Shown piece after piece: positions 1,021 to 4,620 of a stretch of DNA of 64,000 bases. This stretch comes from Escherichia phage EP_H11, in sequence record OP688485. The stretch is one strand, 5' to 3'. The stretch's first letter is position 1, and each line of letters begins with the position of its first letter. Under the pieces are notes generated by a model. That model did no database searches, was not told the origin of the DNA, and worked only from the letters and a program-made list of their open reading frames with translations. Made by a program: the position numbers and the translations under genes.

Positions 1021-1116
1021 TATTTTTCAAATAAACGATTTTTGAACCGTCCTAAAGCCCGTTCTTGTGGGCGGGGCGCTCACGGCGCTTCCGGTTCATC
1101 AAATCGTCTAATTTGG
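1021..1116 (+). repeat. ~90-bp intergenic repeat element, copy 1
   Basis: TATTTTTCAAATAAACGA..TGAAC...TAAAGCCCGTTCTT.TGGG.GGGGCG...CTTCCGG...TCTAATTTGG shared with 4519-4620. Confidence 0.6.
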
Positions 1117-1125
1117 GATAAAACT

Positions 1126-1410
1126 ATGAAAATCGCTCAACTGCTTGCCGCTCTGGCAAATGACACTCTGGTAACTGACTACATGGGTGTTCAAGTAAAC
1201 TACAACTCTAACTGGGTAAGTTCGGTCGGTGAAAAGATCATCGGCTTCAAGGCTTACACTGGTCCTCAGGAATTCCCAGAAGAAAGTCACTTCGCTTCCG
1301 ATGGCTTCAATACGGTCGAGATGCTCGACCCAGGTACCGGTGCGGTGGTGGCTAAGTGTGAGGATGGTCTGTTCGAAGCGATCTTCGAAGAAGTAGACGT
1401 CCAGTTCTGA
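1126..1410 (+). CDS. hypothetical protein
   Basis: ORF track start 1042 trimmed to internal ATG 1126 because 1021-1116 is a repeated element that is non-coding in its second copy. Confidence 0.45.
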   Translation: MKIAQLLAALANDTLVTDYMGVQVNYNSNWVSSVGEKIIGFKAYTGPQEFPEESHFASDGFNTVEMLDPGTGAVVAKCEDGLFEAIFEEVDVQF

Positions 1411-1419
1411 TTTCAATCT

Positions 1420-1437
1420 GGAGGACTTCGGTCCTCC
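1420..1437 (+). other. stem-loop with UUCG tetraloop (GGAGGAC-TTCG-GTCCTCC)
   Basis: 7-bp perfect stem; downstream run only moderately T-rich. Confidence 0.5.
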
Positions 1438-1469
1438 TAATTCTTCCCCTTTATAATTTGGAGCTAATT

Positions 1470-1844
1470 ATGACTAACCAAGAATTCATTCAAAAGTTCG
1501 ACGCTAAAACTGCTTTCGAGAACATGCTGGCAGAAGTAGAATCAATGATCAATATGTCCGGTTTGGTGGCTACTCCAGAAGTCCGCGAAGTACGTGGTCA
1601 AGTTTACGTGAGCGGCTCTACCGAGGACGTTATGTGCCAGATGAACATCCCAATGTTCAAATCCATGTGGATCCATATCTCCGGAGGCCCTCTGGATGAT
1701 AAAACTGGTGCATGGTTCGAAGTTGGTTACCGCTACGAGCATCACGATGGTGGTTCGAATGGTCACAGTATTGCCCAGTTCGTGGTTGATATGAGTGGTG
1801 AAATCACGGTTCGTCGTCCGACTTTCACTAAAGAAGCAAAATAA
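1470..1844 (+). CDS. hypothetical protein
   Basis: ORF track start 1458 is TTG; in-frame ATG at 1470 with GGAG 7 nt upstream. Confidence 0.5.
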   Translation: MTNQEFIQKFDAKTAFENMLAEVESMINMSGLVATPEVREVRGQVYVSGSTEDVMCQMNIPMFKSMWIHISGGPLDDKTGAWFEVGYRYEHHDGGSNGHSIAQFVVDMSGEITVRRPTFTKEAK

Positions 1845-1854
1845 GGGGATCCTC

Positions 1855-2073
1855 ATGAACAAGCTCCGCTACCATCTTGCTGTCCAGGTTAATGGTGTCC
1901 ATTCCTTCACCATCCAGGGTAATGCTCCGAGTGCTCGTAAGCTGATAGAGCAATTCCAGATGTGGTACAAATTTATGGAGCCGGAGCTTGCTTACCAGGA
2001 GATAGAGTACCTGCCTATGCGTGCTGACACACGCGATGCTAAAACAGAACTTTCCGTAACTCGTATTGCATAA
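1855..2073 (+). CDS. hypothetical protein
   Basis: internal ATG of ORF 1795..2073 preceded by AAGGGG; upstream part overlaps previous gene. Confidence 0.45.
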   Translation: MNKLRYHLAVQVNGVHSFTIQGNAPSARKLIEQFQMWYKFMEPELAYQEIEYLPMRADTRDAKTELSVTRIA

Positions 2074-2085
2074 CTTGGTGATAAA

Positions 2086-2499
2086 ATGAAGAAATTAATT
2101 GCTGCTTCTTTGATTCTGGTATCCGTCGCAGCCTGTGCTGGTAAAGATCCTCGTGTGGCTTCCGCTATGGAAGCCGACGTCATTACTGCACTCTTGGCTA
2201 AGTCGTATGTGGAAGAGTGTCCAGAGTACAGTCTTGCTGAAGTGTTGTACTCTGCTAAAGAGGCGATGGTCCTTCCTGTTATGGATCATGGTCATAAGTC
2301 AGCTATCGTCCAGTTTAATGGTATAGGGTCTGATGGTAAGCCAGCAGTTATCCGTTCCCTAATTCATCTGGATCCTGTGGAAGTGGTTACTACTCTCTCG
2401 GTAGAGAAAACTGGTGCGATTAAAGAAGATCTCAGCGACGCTAACGAGCTGATCCTTCCGTCCCTGTGCACCGTAGCAGCAAATAAGTCTTTCCGTTAA
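2086..2499 (+). CDS. putative lipoprotein (signal peptide with lipobox V-A-A-C)
   Basis: N-terminus MKKLIAASLILVSVAAC: basic n-region, hydrophobic core, lipobox cysteine. Confidence 0.6.
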   Translation: MKKLIAASLILVSVAACAGKDPRVASAMEADVITALLAKSYVEECPEYSLAEVLYSAKEAMVLPVMDHGHKSAIVQFNGIGSDGKPAVIRSLIHLDPVEVVTTLSVEKTGAIKEDLSDANELILPSLCTVAANKSFR

Positions 2500-2530
2500 T
2501 ATAGTATAATCTAATCTGTTAGGAGTTATT

Positions 2531-2842
2531 ATGAAAAACATCGATATCGCTAAACTGTTCCTTATCTCTCGTTTGTATCGTCTGTCTAATTCTTCCTCTA
2601 TGATCCTGTGGTATATCTCCGGAACCGCTTCGGGAGCCACGATCAACGAGCTTACAGTCTTCGCTGATAGCGAAGCATCACTAGGTCAAATCCCTCGTAC
2701 GTCCATCTACTATGTGTGTAATAAGTTAGAGAAGGATGGCTGGTTGATCAAAACGACTACTGCTTCGGAAGAGGGTGGTCGTCCGTGCAATCTGTACTCT
2801 CTGAGCCATCGTGCTCGTTTCTTCCTCGACCTGAATAAGTAA
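2531..2842 (+). CDS. putative winged-helix transcriptional regulator (PadR/MarR-like)
   Basis: 103 aa; AGGAG RBS; segment KLEKDGWLIK...GGRPCNLYSLS resembles winged-helix recognition helix plus wing. Confidence 0.4.
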   Translation: MKNIDIAKLFLISRLYRLSNSSSMILWYISGTASGATINELTVFADSEASLGQIPRTSIYYVCNKLEKDGWLIKTTTASEEGGRPCNLYSLSHRARFFLDLNK

Positions 2843-2851
2843 GGTGCTGCT

Positions 2852-3232
2852 ATGTCCATATATTTCCAGGCAGTAGTTGGTGGTCACGTAGTCGATGAAG
2901 ATAACGTCAAGATCGTAACGACGAGTCTTGTTGGGTTACGGGATACTATTAACAAGGATGACCTCCTCCCGATTCACTACAACACTATTGTAGACCAATT
3001 AATTCAGGTAGAAACCGAAGATGGTCTATGCGGGAGCTTAGCGGAGCGAGTTGCTCAACCTATAGATTTGCTGGGTCTGTCCTTAAGGACCTCGGCTCTT
3101 CTGGATGAGCAACACGAGAATCTGACTGTGGATCAAATTAAGTTCCTGGTTAAATTGTTGAAGATGCTGTCCGCCTTAGCTGCAATCAGTCATACCTATA
3201 CGCTAATAACAACAAATCTAATGTGGAGCTAA
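2852..3232 (+). CDS. hypothetical protein
   Basis: 126 aa ORF in dense plus-strand early block. Confidence 0.45.
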   Translation: MSIYFQAVVGGHVVDEDNVKIVTTSLVGLRDTINKDDLLPIHYNTIVDQLIQVETEDGLCGSLAERVAQPIDLLGLSLRTSALLDEQHENLTVDQIKFLVKLLKMLSALAAISHTYTLITTNLMWS

Positions 3233-3531
3233 CCATGCCTTCTGTAATCATTAAATCTAAGCATCGTGCTCTGTTGCGTGCTGCTCAGTCCAAGAATCTG
3301 GAAGAGATAACTAACATCGATCTCCATCCGAATACTCGCTACCACGACTACTTTATCTCCACTACGTTTATCGTACTGGATAAAGATAAGGCGAAGGTAA
3401 TAAAGAGCGTAGATAACCTCTTCGTCGAAGGTGAGATCATTCCTCTCCAGGATCTGTTCTCTAAGCTATCGGATGTCGAGCAGTCTACTCCTGCTACGAA
3501 GCATCCTGTAGACGTCCATATTTCCTTCTGA
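3223..3531 (+). CDS. hypothetical protein
   Basis: 102 aa ORF overlapping upstream stop. Confidence 0.45.
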   Translation: MELTMPSVIIKSKHRALLRAAQSKNLEEITNIDLHPNTRYHDYFISTTFIVLDKDKAKVIKSVDNLFVEGEIIPLQDLFSKLSDVEQSTPATKHPVDVHISF

Positions 3532-3538
3532 GGTAACT

Positions 3539-3745
3539 ATGGGATATAAGCTCTTTGAAACTAAGGAGCAGGAGGAGCACTTCCTGAAGATGATTCGGGA
3601 AGGCTCCGCCATGAATACTCCTCGCAGTCCTGACGATCCTGGGTATAGAAGCGGATGTAAGTCTATTACCCAGGAATTCAGTTCAACAGTCTACCGCTCT
3701 CAGCATCCTTATGTGAGCGGAGGTAACTTAGCTAAGGTCCGCTAA
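3539..3745 (+). CDS. hypothetical protein
   Basis: 68 aa ORF. Confidence 0.4.
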   Translation: MGYKLFETKEQEEHFLKMIREGSAMNTPRSPDDPGYRSGCKSITQEFSSTVYRSQHPYVSGGNLAKVR

Positions 3746-3895
3746 TGGAATGGGTGAGAGCATTGATGGTCATGAGTAGGCTAAAGCCTATCTGTCCAGA
3801 TGACATAATCCGGACTCGTGATGGATTAGTTATGTATCGTCAGGGTCACTTATCTGACCAGGATAAATCTGAAATCGGAATCTATAGGTTCGCTG

Positions 3896-4273
3896 ATGGC
3901 TTTTAAATTAATGGACAGAACTAAGATCCTACACACTGCTGTGGAGAATGGTGGTTATGAATGCCGTACAGATAATAATTCTGTGAACATGGCAAATATC
4001 TCTACCTGTCTGAAGCTGGTGAGCGAAGGATTACTATTTCACGGAACTACTGAACAGGATGCTTACGACAAGCAAGTTAAGTGGTTCCATCCGACTCTTA
4101 CTGGTATCTTAGTAGATACTCAGGAGAAACTGGCTTACCTCATTAATCGGGGTAAGCCTCTATCTAAGAGGAAGCCTGAGATCCTGAATGCTAAACGTAT
4201 TCTGGAGGATAAGCCTAACCTCGCATCTGTATTGAACGAAGATATCTTGAAATTAATTAGGGATTATAAATAA
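3896..4273 (+). CDS. hypothetical protein
   Basis: 125 aa ORF. Confidence 0.45.
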   Translation: MAFKLMDRTKILHTAVENGGYECRTDNNSVNMANISTCLKLVSEGLLFHGTTEQDAYDKQVKWFHPTLTGILVDTQEKLAYLINRGKPLSKRKPEILNAKRILEDKPNLASVLNEDILKLIRDYK

Positions 4274-4515
4274 TGGCTATTCTGGTATTTGCCAAAGATC
4301 AACGGCAGTATAACGATTACATTCGCTCCCAGCATCTTAACCGTTCTGATGCTGTCTACGCCAGCTGCGTTAATAAGCTGCGTGGTCTATTTCCTAAGCC
4401 TACTGAGATGCACTTGCTGCCTAACTGGCATCATAGCGGTCCGTCCCAGATGGCTATGGAAAAAGCTAAGACTCTCTTTCCACAAGCAGTAGAGAAGTCT
4501 ATCGATCAGTGGTAA
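4273..4515 (+). CDS. hypothetical protein
   Basis: 80 aa ORF, start overlaps upstream stop. Confidence 0.45.
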   Translation: MAILVFAKDQRQYNDYIRSQHLNRSDAVYASCVNKLRGLFPKPTEMHLLPNWHHSGPSQMAMEKAKTLFPQAVEKSIDQW

Positions 4516-4518
4516 AAT

Positions 4519-4620
4519 TATTTTTCAAATAAACGAATTATGAACGGGTTTAAAGCCCGTTCTTTTGGGTGGGGCGGCTTCCGGCGGCTCCAATCCGCTA
4601 ACTTAGTATAATCTAATTTT
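4519..4620 (+). repeat. ~90-bp intergenic repeat element, copy 2 (contains hairpin GAACGGG/CCCGTTC plus T-run and a TATAAT hexamer)
   Basis: aligned by eye to 1021-1116; 3-prime part TAGTATAATCTAAT recurs at 2502-2516. Confidence 0.6.

Follow-up and report, generated by a model that had tools for sequence, protein, structure and literature searches.

A conserved family of intergenic regulatory cassettes in Escherichia phage EP_H11 and its possible role as a class-specific promoter

The DNA analysed here, referred to below as the window, is a stretch of 64,000 nucleotides from Escherichia phage EP_H11 (sequence record OP688485). An initial annotation of the window had described an intergenic element of approximately 90 bp present in two copies, at 1021–1116 (copy 1) and 4519–4620 (copy 2), each directly before a gene start. 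This description is confirmed: a repeat finder applied to the 64-kb window returns a direct repeat of 59 nt at 86% identity (1020–1078 vs 4518–4576), and global alignment of the two segments gives 76 identities in 103 columns with 8 gap positions. A start codon closes both copies, ATG 1126 for copy 1 and ATG 4631 for copy 2. The gene 3' of copy 1 (1126–1410) encodes an ORFan of 94 amino acids (aa), for which an exact look-up found no record, and that 3' of copy 2 (4631–4738) encodes a product of 35 aa that appears hydrophobic as judged by eye. Small ORFans lie 3' of both copies, with PolX also following copy 2, and the two copies, which are in direct orientation, enclose a block of 11 ORFans.

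The high-identity part of the repeat comprises the 5' 59 nt only, the remainder being a GC hairpin that is structurally equivalent but has diverged in sequence, and a common ribosome-binding module. Taken alone, the 3' halves of the two copies are identical at 33 of 54 positions, above all 1000 of 1000 shuffles. The 64-kb window contains exactly two occurrences each of the 19-mer TTATTTTTCAAATAAACGA and of the 26-mer TAAAGCCCGTTCTTNTGGGNGGGGCG, where dinucleotide-preserving shuffles give an expectation of zero. The third, partial copy that had been reported is also real, and is longer than was claimed, with 21 of 24 positions matching between 2492–2515 and 4594–4617 (0 expected by chance). The repeat pair are genuine members of a small conserved family, here called family B, rather than a chance pair, and family B is a real, conserved family of regulatory cassettes. 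The parts of the window copies are as follows.

908–953, + strand: intrinsic terminator 5' of copy 1, a 17-bp hairpin followed by ATTTTTATTT (terminator scan)
1005–1038, + strand: AT-rich block of copy 1, a perfect 24-nt palindrome GAAAAATAAAAC/GTTTTATTTTTC (1005–1028) that overlaps TTATTTTTCAAATAAACGA (1020–1038)
1034–1047, + strand: upstream box of copy 1, AACGATTTTTGAAC, in the same register as the family A box CCGCTCTTTT (see below)
1053–1071, + strand: conserved core of copy 1, TAAAGCCCGTTCTTGTGGG, the proposed promoter core, with a presumed start within the G-run
1073–1091, + strand: GC hairpin of copy 1, GGGGCGCT-CAC-GGCGCTTC, a predicted fold and proposed 5' leader stem-loop
1107–1128, + strand: translation-initiation module of copy 1, TCTAATTTGGGA, spacer and ATG at 1126
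2492–2533, + strand: partial copy, 3' module only, TCCGTTAATATAGTATAATCTAAT followed by AGGAG and ATG 2531 (repeat match)
4518–4536, + strand: AT-rich block of copy 2, TTATTTTTCAAATAAACGA, with a TTATTT/AAATAA inverted repeat
4532–4545, + strand: upstream box of copy 2, AACGAATTATGAAC (alignment of copies)
4542–4566, + strand: terminator-like hairpin of copy 2, GAACGGGTT-TAA-AGCCCGTTC plus TTTT (terminator scan)
4551–4569, + strand: conserved core of copy 2, TAAAGCCCGTTCTTTTGGG (alignment of copies)
4567–4598, + strand: GC hairpin of copy 2, GGGTGGGGC.GCT-TCC-GGC.GGCTCC.AATCC (predicted fold)
4594–4633, + strand: 3' module of copy 2, TCCGCTAACTTAGTATAATCTAAT, then TTTGGAG and ATG 4631 (from the sequence)

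The arms of the terminator at 908–953 are made of the abundant family A motif, AAAGGCTGTTAA. The AT-rich block of copy 2 begins 2 nt past the TAA stop codon at 4513–4515, and the hairpin, T-run and TATAAT that had been noted in this copy are present, at 4542–4562, as TTTT, and at 4607–4612, respectively. The terminator-like hairpin itself (4542–4562), a canonical 9-bp stem, extends over the core and is seen in copy 2 alone; at this position copy 1 has only a 4-bp GAAC/GTTC stem. The partial copy has neither core nor AT block, and carries TATAAT at 2505–2510.

The window is 93–95% identical to the myovirus Escherichia phage vB_EcoM_IME392 (MH719082.1, 116,460 bp), its sole close relative among 50,697 phage records, and window positions 1–15118 correspond to IME392 15701–1 on the reverse strand. 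The IME392 orthologs of both window copies, found with BLAST and nhmmer, are 96–96.5% identical. A genome of this type carries five or more family B copies and one degenerate copy: members are found in IME392 at ~14050, 10551, 19160, 22983 and 45288, with a degenerate copy at 22647–22606; the three paralogs at ~19160, 22983 and 45288 and the degenerate copy lie in a part of the genome beyond the window. All but one of the copies, the degenerate one included, fall within the 9–23 kb block of IME392 that contains the beta-prime genes, an Acb1-like gene, ORFans and PolX. The degenerate sixth copy, ACAGCCCGTTCACTTGGGGCGGGGCGTTTCCCGCC, is situated one small gene 3' of copy 5, and the cassettes can therefore stand in tandem around single ORFans. 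All family B copies are intergenic and on the early-gene strand, with the core 63–79 nt before the ATG. When aligned, they show a common arrangement, which runs from a stop codon or terminator through the AT-rich inverted-GAAAAATAAAAC block, the ACGAtTTTTG-rrAC box, 5 variable nt, the near-invariant core TAAAGCCCGTTCTTTTGGG and the GC hairpin to TCTAATTTGGAG/GGGA and ATG. In every copy the AT-rich block starts at, or within ~20 nt of, a stop codon or terminator. A terminator-like hairpin lies directly 5' of the cassette or overlaps it in 4 of 5 copies (at 908–944 for copy 1, internally in copy 2, and immediately 5' of copies 4 and 5), and copy 3 follows a stop codon directly with no terminator between.

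Contigs from further relatives (Logan contigs L033–L036) were reached through homologs of the window PolX. Both copies are unchanged in the IME392-like contigs L033 and L034. In a more distant contig, the 2.5-kb fragment L035 from SRR15128856, in which PolX is only 58% identical, the sequence begins within the copy 2 ortholog (TTTAAAAGCCCGTTCTTTTGGGCGGGGGCGTTCCCCGC...ATG); here the core AAAGCCCGTTCTTTTGGGCGG is intact, the rest of the leader cannot be aligned, and the hairpin has been rebuilt from other sequence (GCGGGG-GCGTT-CCCCGC). Conservation of the element in related genomes, which the initial annotation had proposed as a check, is thus observed in IME392, L033 and L034, and extends for the core to L035. 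Within IME392 the GC hairpin likewise differs in sequence in each paralog. As judged from these comparisons, the core is under purifying selection on its primary sequence and the hairpin is kept as a structure, because in L035 the core is intact while the hairpin sequence has changed. Beyond these relatives the core 20-mer has no match in IMG/VR, its four matches in JGI metagenomes are all to bacterial or other unrelated sequence and were attributed to chance, and a ligase-based locus search for further relatives gave nothing.

It had also been argued that an open reading frame (ORF) extension across copy 1, at 1042–1125, is non-coding, and the relatives bear this out. In IME392 and L033 a 1-nt insertion in the hairpin region shifts the frame, such that the frame 5' of ATG 1126 is closed after 81 nt. 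Neither relative thus preserves the in-frame extension from TTG 1042, and the downstream 94-aa protein is nearly identical in both.

The 40 nt that follow the core are predicted to fold at all 8 of 8 family B sites of the lineage, with minimum free energies (MFE) of −14.1 to −22.8 kcal/mol compared with −6.1 ± 3.2 kcal/mol (5th percentile −11.7) for random genomic 40-mers. The z-scores against composition-preserving shuffles are all negative (−1.2 to −4.2), and in each copy the hairpin begins within the GGG run. Between the window and IME392, both changes in the copy 2 stem turn G-U pairs into G-C pairs. ARAGORN found no tRNA in the element, and there was no Rfam match at gathering score; the best sub-threshold match, to the L20 leader (20.2 bits vs 58.7), merely reflects the terminator hairpin of copy 2. 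A T-arm-like GCGG-CTCCAAT-CCGC in copy 2 had led us to consider a tRNA remnant or known RNA family, a candidate rejected since both ARAGORN and Rfam were empty. The suggestion that the element is a discrete small RNA is likewise not upheld, as there is no Rfam or tRNA match and no terminator after the GC hairpin, and a Shine-Dalgarno (SD) sequence and ATG follow directly.

These hairpins also bear on whether the elements are simply transcription terminators or attenuators that mark the ends of operons. Copy 2, with its canonical 9-bp hairpin and TTTT, has the form expected of one; GTTC is followed by TTTT in all copies (TTGT in copy 1) and preceded by a partly complementary box, and the GC hairpin of copy 5 was flagged as terminator-like. 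However, a GC stem of at least 5 bp followed by a T-run, as defines an intrinsic terminator, is found in copy 2 only (4542–4566), with copy 1 having a stem of just 4 bp, and the GC hairpins lack a following T-run, save marginally in copy 5. Furthermore, three copies already have a separate strong terminator immediately 5', which would make a second redundant, and a terminator has no need of a 20-nt invariant sequence, yet the core is invariant across relatives of 58% identity while the stems change. We therefore consider it improbable that termination is the general function of the family.

Counting of k-mers revealed a second, abundant intergenic motif of 40 nt, family A (aCCGCTCTTTT-N8-GAAAGGCTGTTAAAGTGT). 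It is present in 25 copies in IME392, all on the early strand, and lies 20–45 nt 5' of start codons. Its copies in the window are:

906, 6067, 13024, 18219, 19616, 22331 and 23406, + strand: family A copies (k-mer/motif search)

Copies of family A are concentrated where the early arm begins (55–61 kb of IME392) and are found before replication genes; in L035, the relative of 58% identity, the motif is also conserved ahead of the ligase gene. Its TGT-TAAAGT string resembles an extended −10. Family A is probably the major early/middle promoter class of the phage; no obvious late-promoter motif was seen by eye before structural genes. The 24 single matches of the family A 17-mer in IMG/VR show no real homology to the phage. 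There is no general internal or enclosing pairing among the 25 copies (permutation p = 0.13), and this lack of general secondary structure points to recognition at the level of DNA. Two of the 25 copies do pair strongly, with the motif enclosed in a hairpin of ~−20 kcal/mol, and family A sites within strong hairpins followed by T-runs are observed at 908–944 of the window and at ~28251 and 56322 of IME392. In the window copy at 906–944 the terminator is formed from the motif itself, which is the same composite design as in copy 2. Some family A sites lie directly after a stop codon with no terminator.

The core of family B shares its register and the string AAAG-s-C-y-GTT with family A (AAAGGCTGTTAAAGTGT). 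When anchored on AAAG, the two families have in common a CG at equal offset, a T-run and this string. Comparable motifs are found in the distant Acinetobacter phage Ab1-TPeters, the N-terminal beta-prime fragment of which is 37% identical, and in the related contig L036: the first is AACTCAAAATTGA-N5-AAAAGCTGTTTAAAGTG, and the second is CCTGTTTCTTAA-N11-12-wAAArCCTGTT-aagTTGT-GGG with a GC hairpin after it. In Ab1-TPeters the class with the hairpin precedes a block of a hypothetical gene plus beta-prime N and one of small ORFs plus PolX, positions that family B holds in IME392 and the window. Family A and the Ab1-TPeters motifs (A'/B') thus resemble family B in their bipartite layout, register, AAAG-s-C-y-GTT string, G-rich downstream region with frequent hairpins, placement on the intergenic sense strand and occasional embedding in terminators. 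They differ from it in the downstream half (AAAGTGT vs CTTTTGGGTGG) and in the upstream box, and the AT-rich palindromes and the TCTAATTTGGAG module belong to family B only. The distribution of their copies along IME392 suggests that families A and B may represent two temporal or regulatory classes.

We favour the interpretation that family B consists of a class-specific, non-sigma-70 promoter followed by a 5' leader hairpin, with copy 2 doubling as a terminator, and assign it a probability of roughly 0.55. Several features argue for a promoter: the cassettes follow terminators, keep one orientation and a set distance to start codons, and have ~20 nt that stay invariant over deep divergence. 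The bipartite layout held in common with the structure-less family A, the syntenic conservation in a distant relative and the lack of a sigma-70 pair at a conserved position point the same way. Family B has the general hallmarks of phage promoters, being multi-copy, at fixed distance to genes, co-oriented and kept in relatives, and we also count in favour of this interpretation the RNA polymerase beta-prime fragments encoded by the lineage and the packaging of polymerase subunits in virions of relatives (PMC7354516). A promoter scan found no sigma-70 −35/−10 pair at a conserved position in the family B copies; if TTGAAC is taken as −35, copy 1 has TTGTGG 17 nt further on and the other copies have TTTTGG.

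Under the promoter interpretation, each cassette would restart transcription past an upstream gene or terminator. The promoter would be bipartite, comprising the ACGAtTTTTG-rrAC box, ~5 nt and the core TAAAGCCCGTTCTTTTGGG, and might be recognised either by the phage's own multisubunit RNA polymerase or by that of the host, redirected through a phage factor. With a start in the G-run, the mRNA would open with a stable GC hairpin shielding its 5' end, and the leader hairpin would be followed by the ribosome-binding module TCTAATTTGGAG and the first gene of the block. The upstream AT-rich inverted repeats are class-specific and could serve as a regulator site or in the manner of an UP element. 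The sequence that separates the two boxes has, in copy 2, become complementary to the core, so that the same DNA would also encode an intrinsic terminator for incoming transcripts. The composite terminator-promoter-leader cassette put forward in the initial annotation comes close to this best-supported reading, although the hairpin-and-T-run terminator within the element is confined to copy 2 and the TATAAT, which is absent from copies 1, 3 and 4, is not conserved across the family.

Several points weigh against the promoter interpretation. The sequence establishes the repeat and its anatomy, together with where it lies and how far it is conserved; promoter activity and start site are things we infer from position and conservation, and the polymerase and the role of the hairpin are likewise inferred. 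The likeness to family A amounts to only ~10 shared positions. Under the family A weight matrix the B upstream boxes rank in the top 0.09–15% of genome positions at that exact offset, percentiles that are suggestive but no formal probability, and not independent, since the B copies are paralogs, and the box of copy 2 is poor, falling only in the top 15%. RNAalifold on a MAFFT alignment gives a consensus of −7.4 kcal/mol with a covariation term of −0.23, a weak result because the stems lie in different registers; the check for compensatory substitutions proposed in the initial annotation thus gives weak formal support, and the predicted GC hairpin is well supported copy by copy rather than by formal covariation. 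Moreover, the core can be read as RNA, in the form of a 5-bp hairpin GCCCG-UUCUUU-UGGGY, and the purine variation in rrAC always keeps G-U/A-U pairing with GTTCTT, which fits an RNA helix equally well.

These last observations lead to the main rival, that family B is an RNA-level site in a read-through transcript, with two stem-loops, the small conserved hairpin and the GC hairpin beside it. These could be bound by a phage or host protein, as a translational operator or for antitermination of the nut/put kind, or could set the 5' end of the downstream mRNA through processing or stabilisation. The GCCCG/UGGGY stem is returned by RNAalifold for 9 of 9 sequences, as is the base of the second hairpin, and the Ab1-like contig L036 has a look-alike, AAGCCTGT-TCTTTTT-ACAGGGCTT, with a longer stem around the same TTCTTTT loop. 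The variable rrAC box, paired by eye, can always pair with GTTCTT through G-U, and copy 3 and some family A sites, being directly after stop codons, would be within read-through transcripts. Against this, the small stem offers no variation that would test it, four of the 5 pairs being constant and the remaining one GU, GC or, in one case, GG, and the degenerate copy breaks one pair. Conservation also reaches ~35 nt 5' of the stem, where the register matches that of the unstructured 25-copy motif, an extension that an RNA site would not need; 4 of 5 copies closely follow terminators, past which not much read-through RNA should arise, and Rfam has no match. On balance an RNA-level site appears unlikely, though it is the alternative that deserves most attention.

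The perfect TATAAT at 4607–4612 of copy 2, and likewise at 2505–2510 in the partial copy, raises the question of an ordinary host sigma-70 promoter. Copy 5 also has TATAAT, and L035 has GTAATAAT at the equivalent place. However, copies 1, 3 and 4 have TCTAAT, without the essential A at position 2, and no acceptable −35 is found at 16–18 nt (GCGGCT, AATAAG), nor does the scan give any such promoter on the + strand. A start ~7 nt 3' would land in or after the SD sequence, and the invariant core would be left unexplained. Of the readings considered we regard this as the least probable. It was observed separately that T(A/C)TAAT lies 3–10 nt 5' of the SD sequence in all family B copies, and also before genes 1470 and 2531 (window 1447–1472 and 2502–2533; TTATAATTTGGAG and TATAATCTAAT...AGGAG), and may serve as a weak −10 element or, being AU-rich, as an enhancer of translation. 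Comparison by eye with the respective consensus sequences led us to reject both a sigma-54 promoter (the spacing of GG and GC differs by one, and copies 1 and 2 lack GG) and an extracytoplasmic function (ECF)-type promoter (AAC-to-CGT spacing of 12 nt vs ~16–17).

The surroundings of copy 1 differ between the window and its relatives. A block of ~620 bp with 2 genes (101 and 116 aa), present at IME392 14722–14103 and L033 5090–5726, is missing from the window, where a remnant remains at 971–1004 (ATG AAG TTT ACC ACC TAG at 971–988, the start and five codons). The right breakpoint of this indel abuts the 5' edge of the copy 1 palindrome, whereas the other window/IME392 breakpoints (~9.3–9.6, 25.4–26.0 and 33.5–42.6 kb) are away from family A and B motifs. 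The elements could thus be recombination relics, or boundaries of a mobile cassette resembling a miniature inverted-repeat transposable element (MITE), with no regulatory function of their own: the only window/IME392 indel in the region ends at the palindrome edge, copies 1 and 2 flank the 11-ORFan block in direct orientation, and cassettes of T4-like phages act in this way (PMC2839356). Nevertheless, there are no terminal inverted repeats or target-site duplications, the orientation and start-codon distance are fixed, distant relatives retain the core at syntenic positions, and just one indel boundary is beside a copy. A recombination role would in any case add to a regulatory one rather than replace it, as with those T4-like cassettes. 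A relic without function of its own is therefore, in our estimation, highly improbable.

The T4-like cassettes in question, termed promoter-early stem-loops (PeSLs), are the closest known analogue of family B. They have been described in RB49/phi1, PST and nt-1 (Arbiol et al. 2010, PMC2839356; Comeau et al. 2014, PMC4122927), where an AT-rich stop-codon region is followed by promoter boxes, a GGGG...CCCC stem-loop of variable position, the SD sequence and ATG, and where they are tied to ORFans and give rise to indels (PMC2839356, PMC4122927). Family B and the PeSLs are alike in being small, repeated and intergenic, and in running from a stop codon or AT-rich stretch through promoter boxes to SD and ATG; in both the stem-loop can overlap the promoter boxes, as in copy 2, and both are associated with ORFan blocks, one indel boundary being beside a family B copy. 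However, PeSL promoters fit the E. coli sigma-70 consensus and the family B core does not, and the family B stem-loop is mostly 3' of the core in the presumed leader, with no T-run. There is no sequence homology, the phage lineages are unrelated, and family B is known from sequence alone. By analogy, family B would work like a PeSL or phage-promoter cassette, and we do not file it as a member of the PeSLs.

Further parallels are found in other phages. T7 class III promoters and the phi10 leader combine a near-invariant sequence of ~20 nt ending in GGG with a stem-loop and a ribosome-binding site, in several co-oriented copies, and family B similarly has multiple co-oriented copies of a ~20-nt core ending in GGG, followed by a stem-loop and ribosome site. 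The T7 polymerase is single-subunit, whereas none of this kind is evident here: the large IME392 ORFs tested are Rad50/SbcC-like, DNA polymerase A and beta-prime fragments, and a T7-like enzyme was rejected for the 921-aa ORF beside copy 4, which is the Rad50/SbcC-like one. Family B also adds an upstream box and AT-rich block, and its start is a presumed one. The virion and non-virion multisubunit polymerases of phiKZ and AR9/PBS2 recognise phage-specific, non-sigma-70 promoter classes, and AR9 DNA contains uracil; like these, family B would be a non-sigma-70 class tied to a temporal gene class in a phage with modified DNA. The bipartite arrangement with a class-specific upstream box recalls the T4 middle promoter (MotA box plus −10). 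The consensus sequences of these systems (AACA-N6-TW for AR9 late, TATG for phiKZ late and TGCTT for the MotA box) are unlike TAAAGCCCGTTCTTTTGGG, and any link between the motif and a polymerase would be hypothetical.

IME392 carries two RNA polymerase beta-prime fragments, corresponding to Rpb1 domains 1–2 and domains 3–5, the closest relatives of which, at no more than 37% identity, are in Ab1-TPeters and RP13. An IME392 ORF outside the window (33740–34711) was found to match a 5-hydroxymethyldeoxyuridine (5-hmdU) DNA kinase (PF18723, E = 3e-35). Together with dCTP deaminase, dUTPase and a thymidylate-synthase homolog, this indicates that the lineage hypermodifies thymidine, a modification that may bear on how T-rich promoter cores are read. 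The AR9 polymerase requires uracil. A bolder proposal, which we regard as possible but doubtful, is that the multisubunit RNA polymerase of YerA41/RP13/IME392-type phages, with their hypermodified thymidines, reads families A and B, which would then be its first promoter classes to come to light. The T-rich core GTTCTTTT would be read in modified form, and the class-specific upstream boxes and the AT palindromes would set the temporal programme. The IME392 DNA polymerase has been grouped with those of the T-hypermodified phages YerA41, Carin-5 and RP13 (PMC12686479), and the polymerase subunits of YerA41 are virion-associated and early-expressed (PMC7354516).

Other features of the window were recorded alongside. 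The ORF at 54–560, 5' of the element block, matches Pfam Acb1, an anti-CBASS 2H phosphoesterase (27.5 bits vs a cut-off of 27), and also a PHROG with the annotation RNA ligase, and is a possible anti-defence gene. Hairpins bounded by CTATAGrr...yyCTATG(TG), many of them with a CTTCGG loop, form a third intergenic family and may be terminators, processing sites or another promoter class:

8312–8337, 9563–9590, 14100–14125, 15651–15677 and 18250–18282, window: third-family hairpins (from the sequence)

At 18833–19361 there are 529 nt without an ORF on the early strand, GC-rich and with strong predicted structure, the MFE being −183.5 kcal/mol (z = −3.6 vs shuffles). This stretch, which had no Rfam or tRNA match, sits within a block 93% identical to IME392, with 19130–19205 also resembling IME392 57454–57382, and may be a non-coding RNA.

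No transcript data for EP_H11 or IME392 and no publication describing the family A or B motifs were found in the literature searched, a search with the motif strings giving irrelevant matches only, and no transcription signals have been described there for the IME392/Ab1-TPeters/RP13/YerA41 lineage. This is a lineage with a split multisubunit RNA polymerase and, probably, hypermodified thymidine, and IME392 is annotated with only 85 coding sequences. The family B core and family A provide concrete promoter candidates for mapping operons and temporal classes; they allow one to ask which polymerase reads the modified DNA, and would help to annotate the many unannotated small genes. In addition, the recurrent fusion of a promoter-like motif with a terminator hairpin, as seen in copy 2, at 906–944 and in two IME392 family A copies, represents an independent design of the PeSL type outside the T4-like phages.

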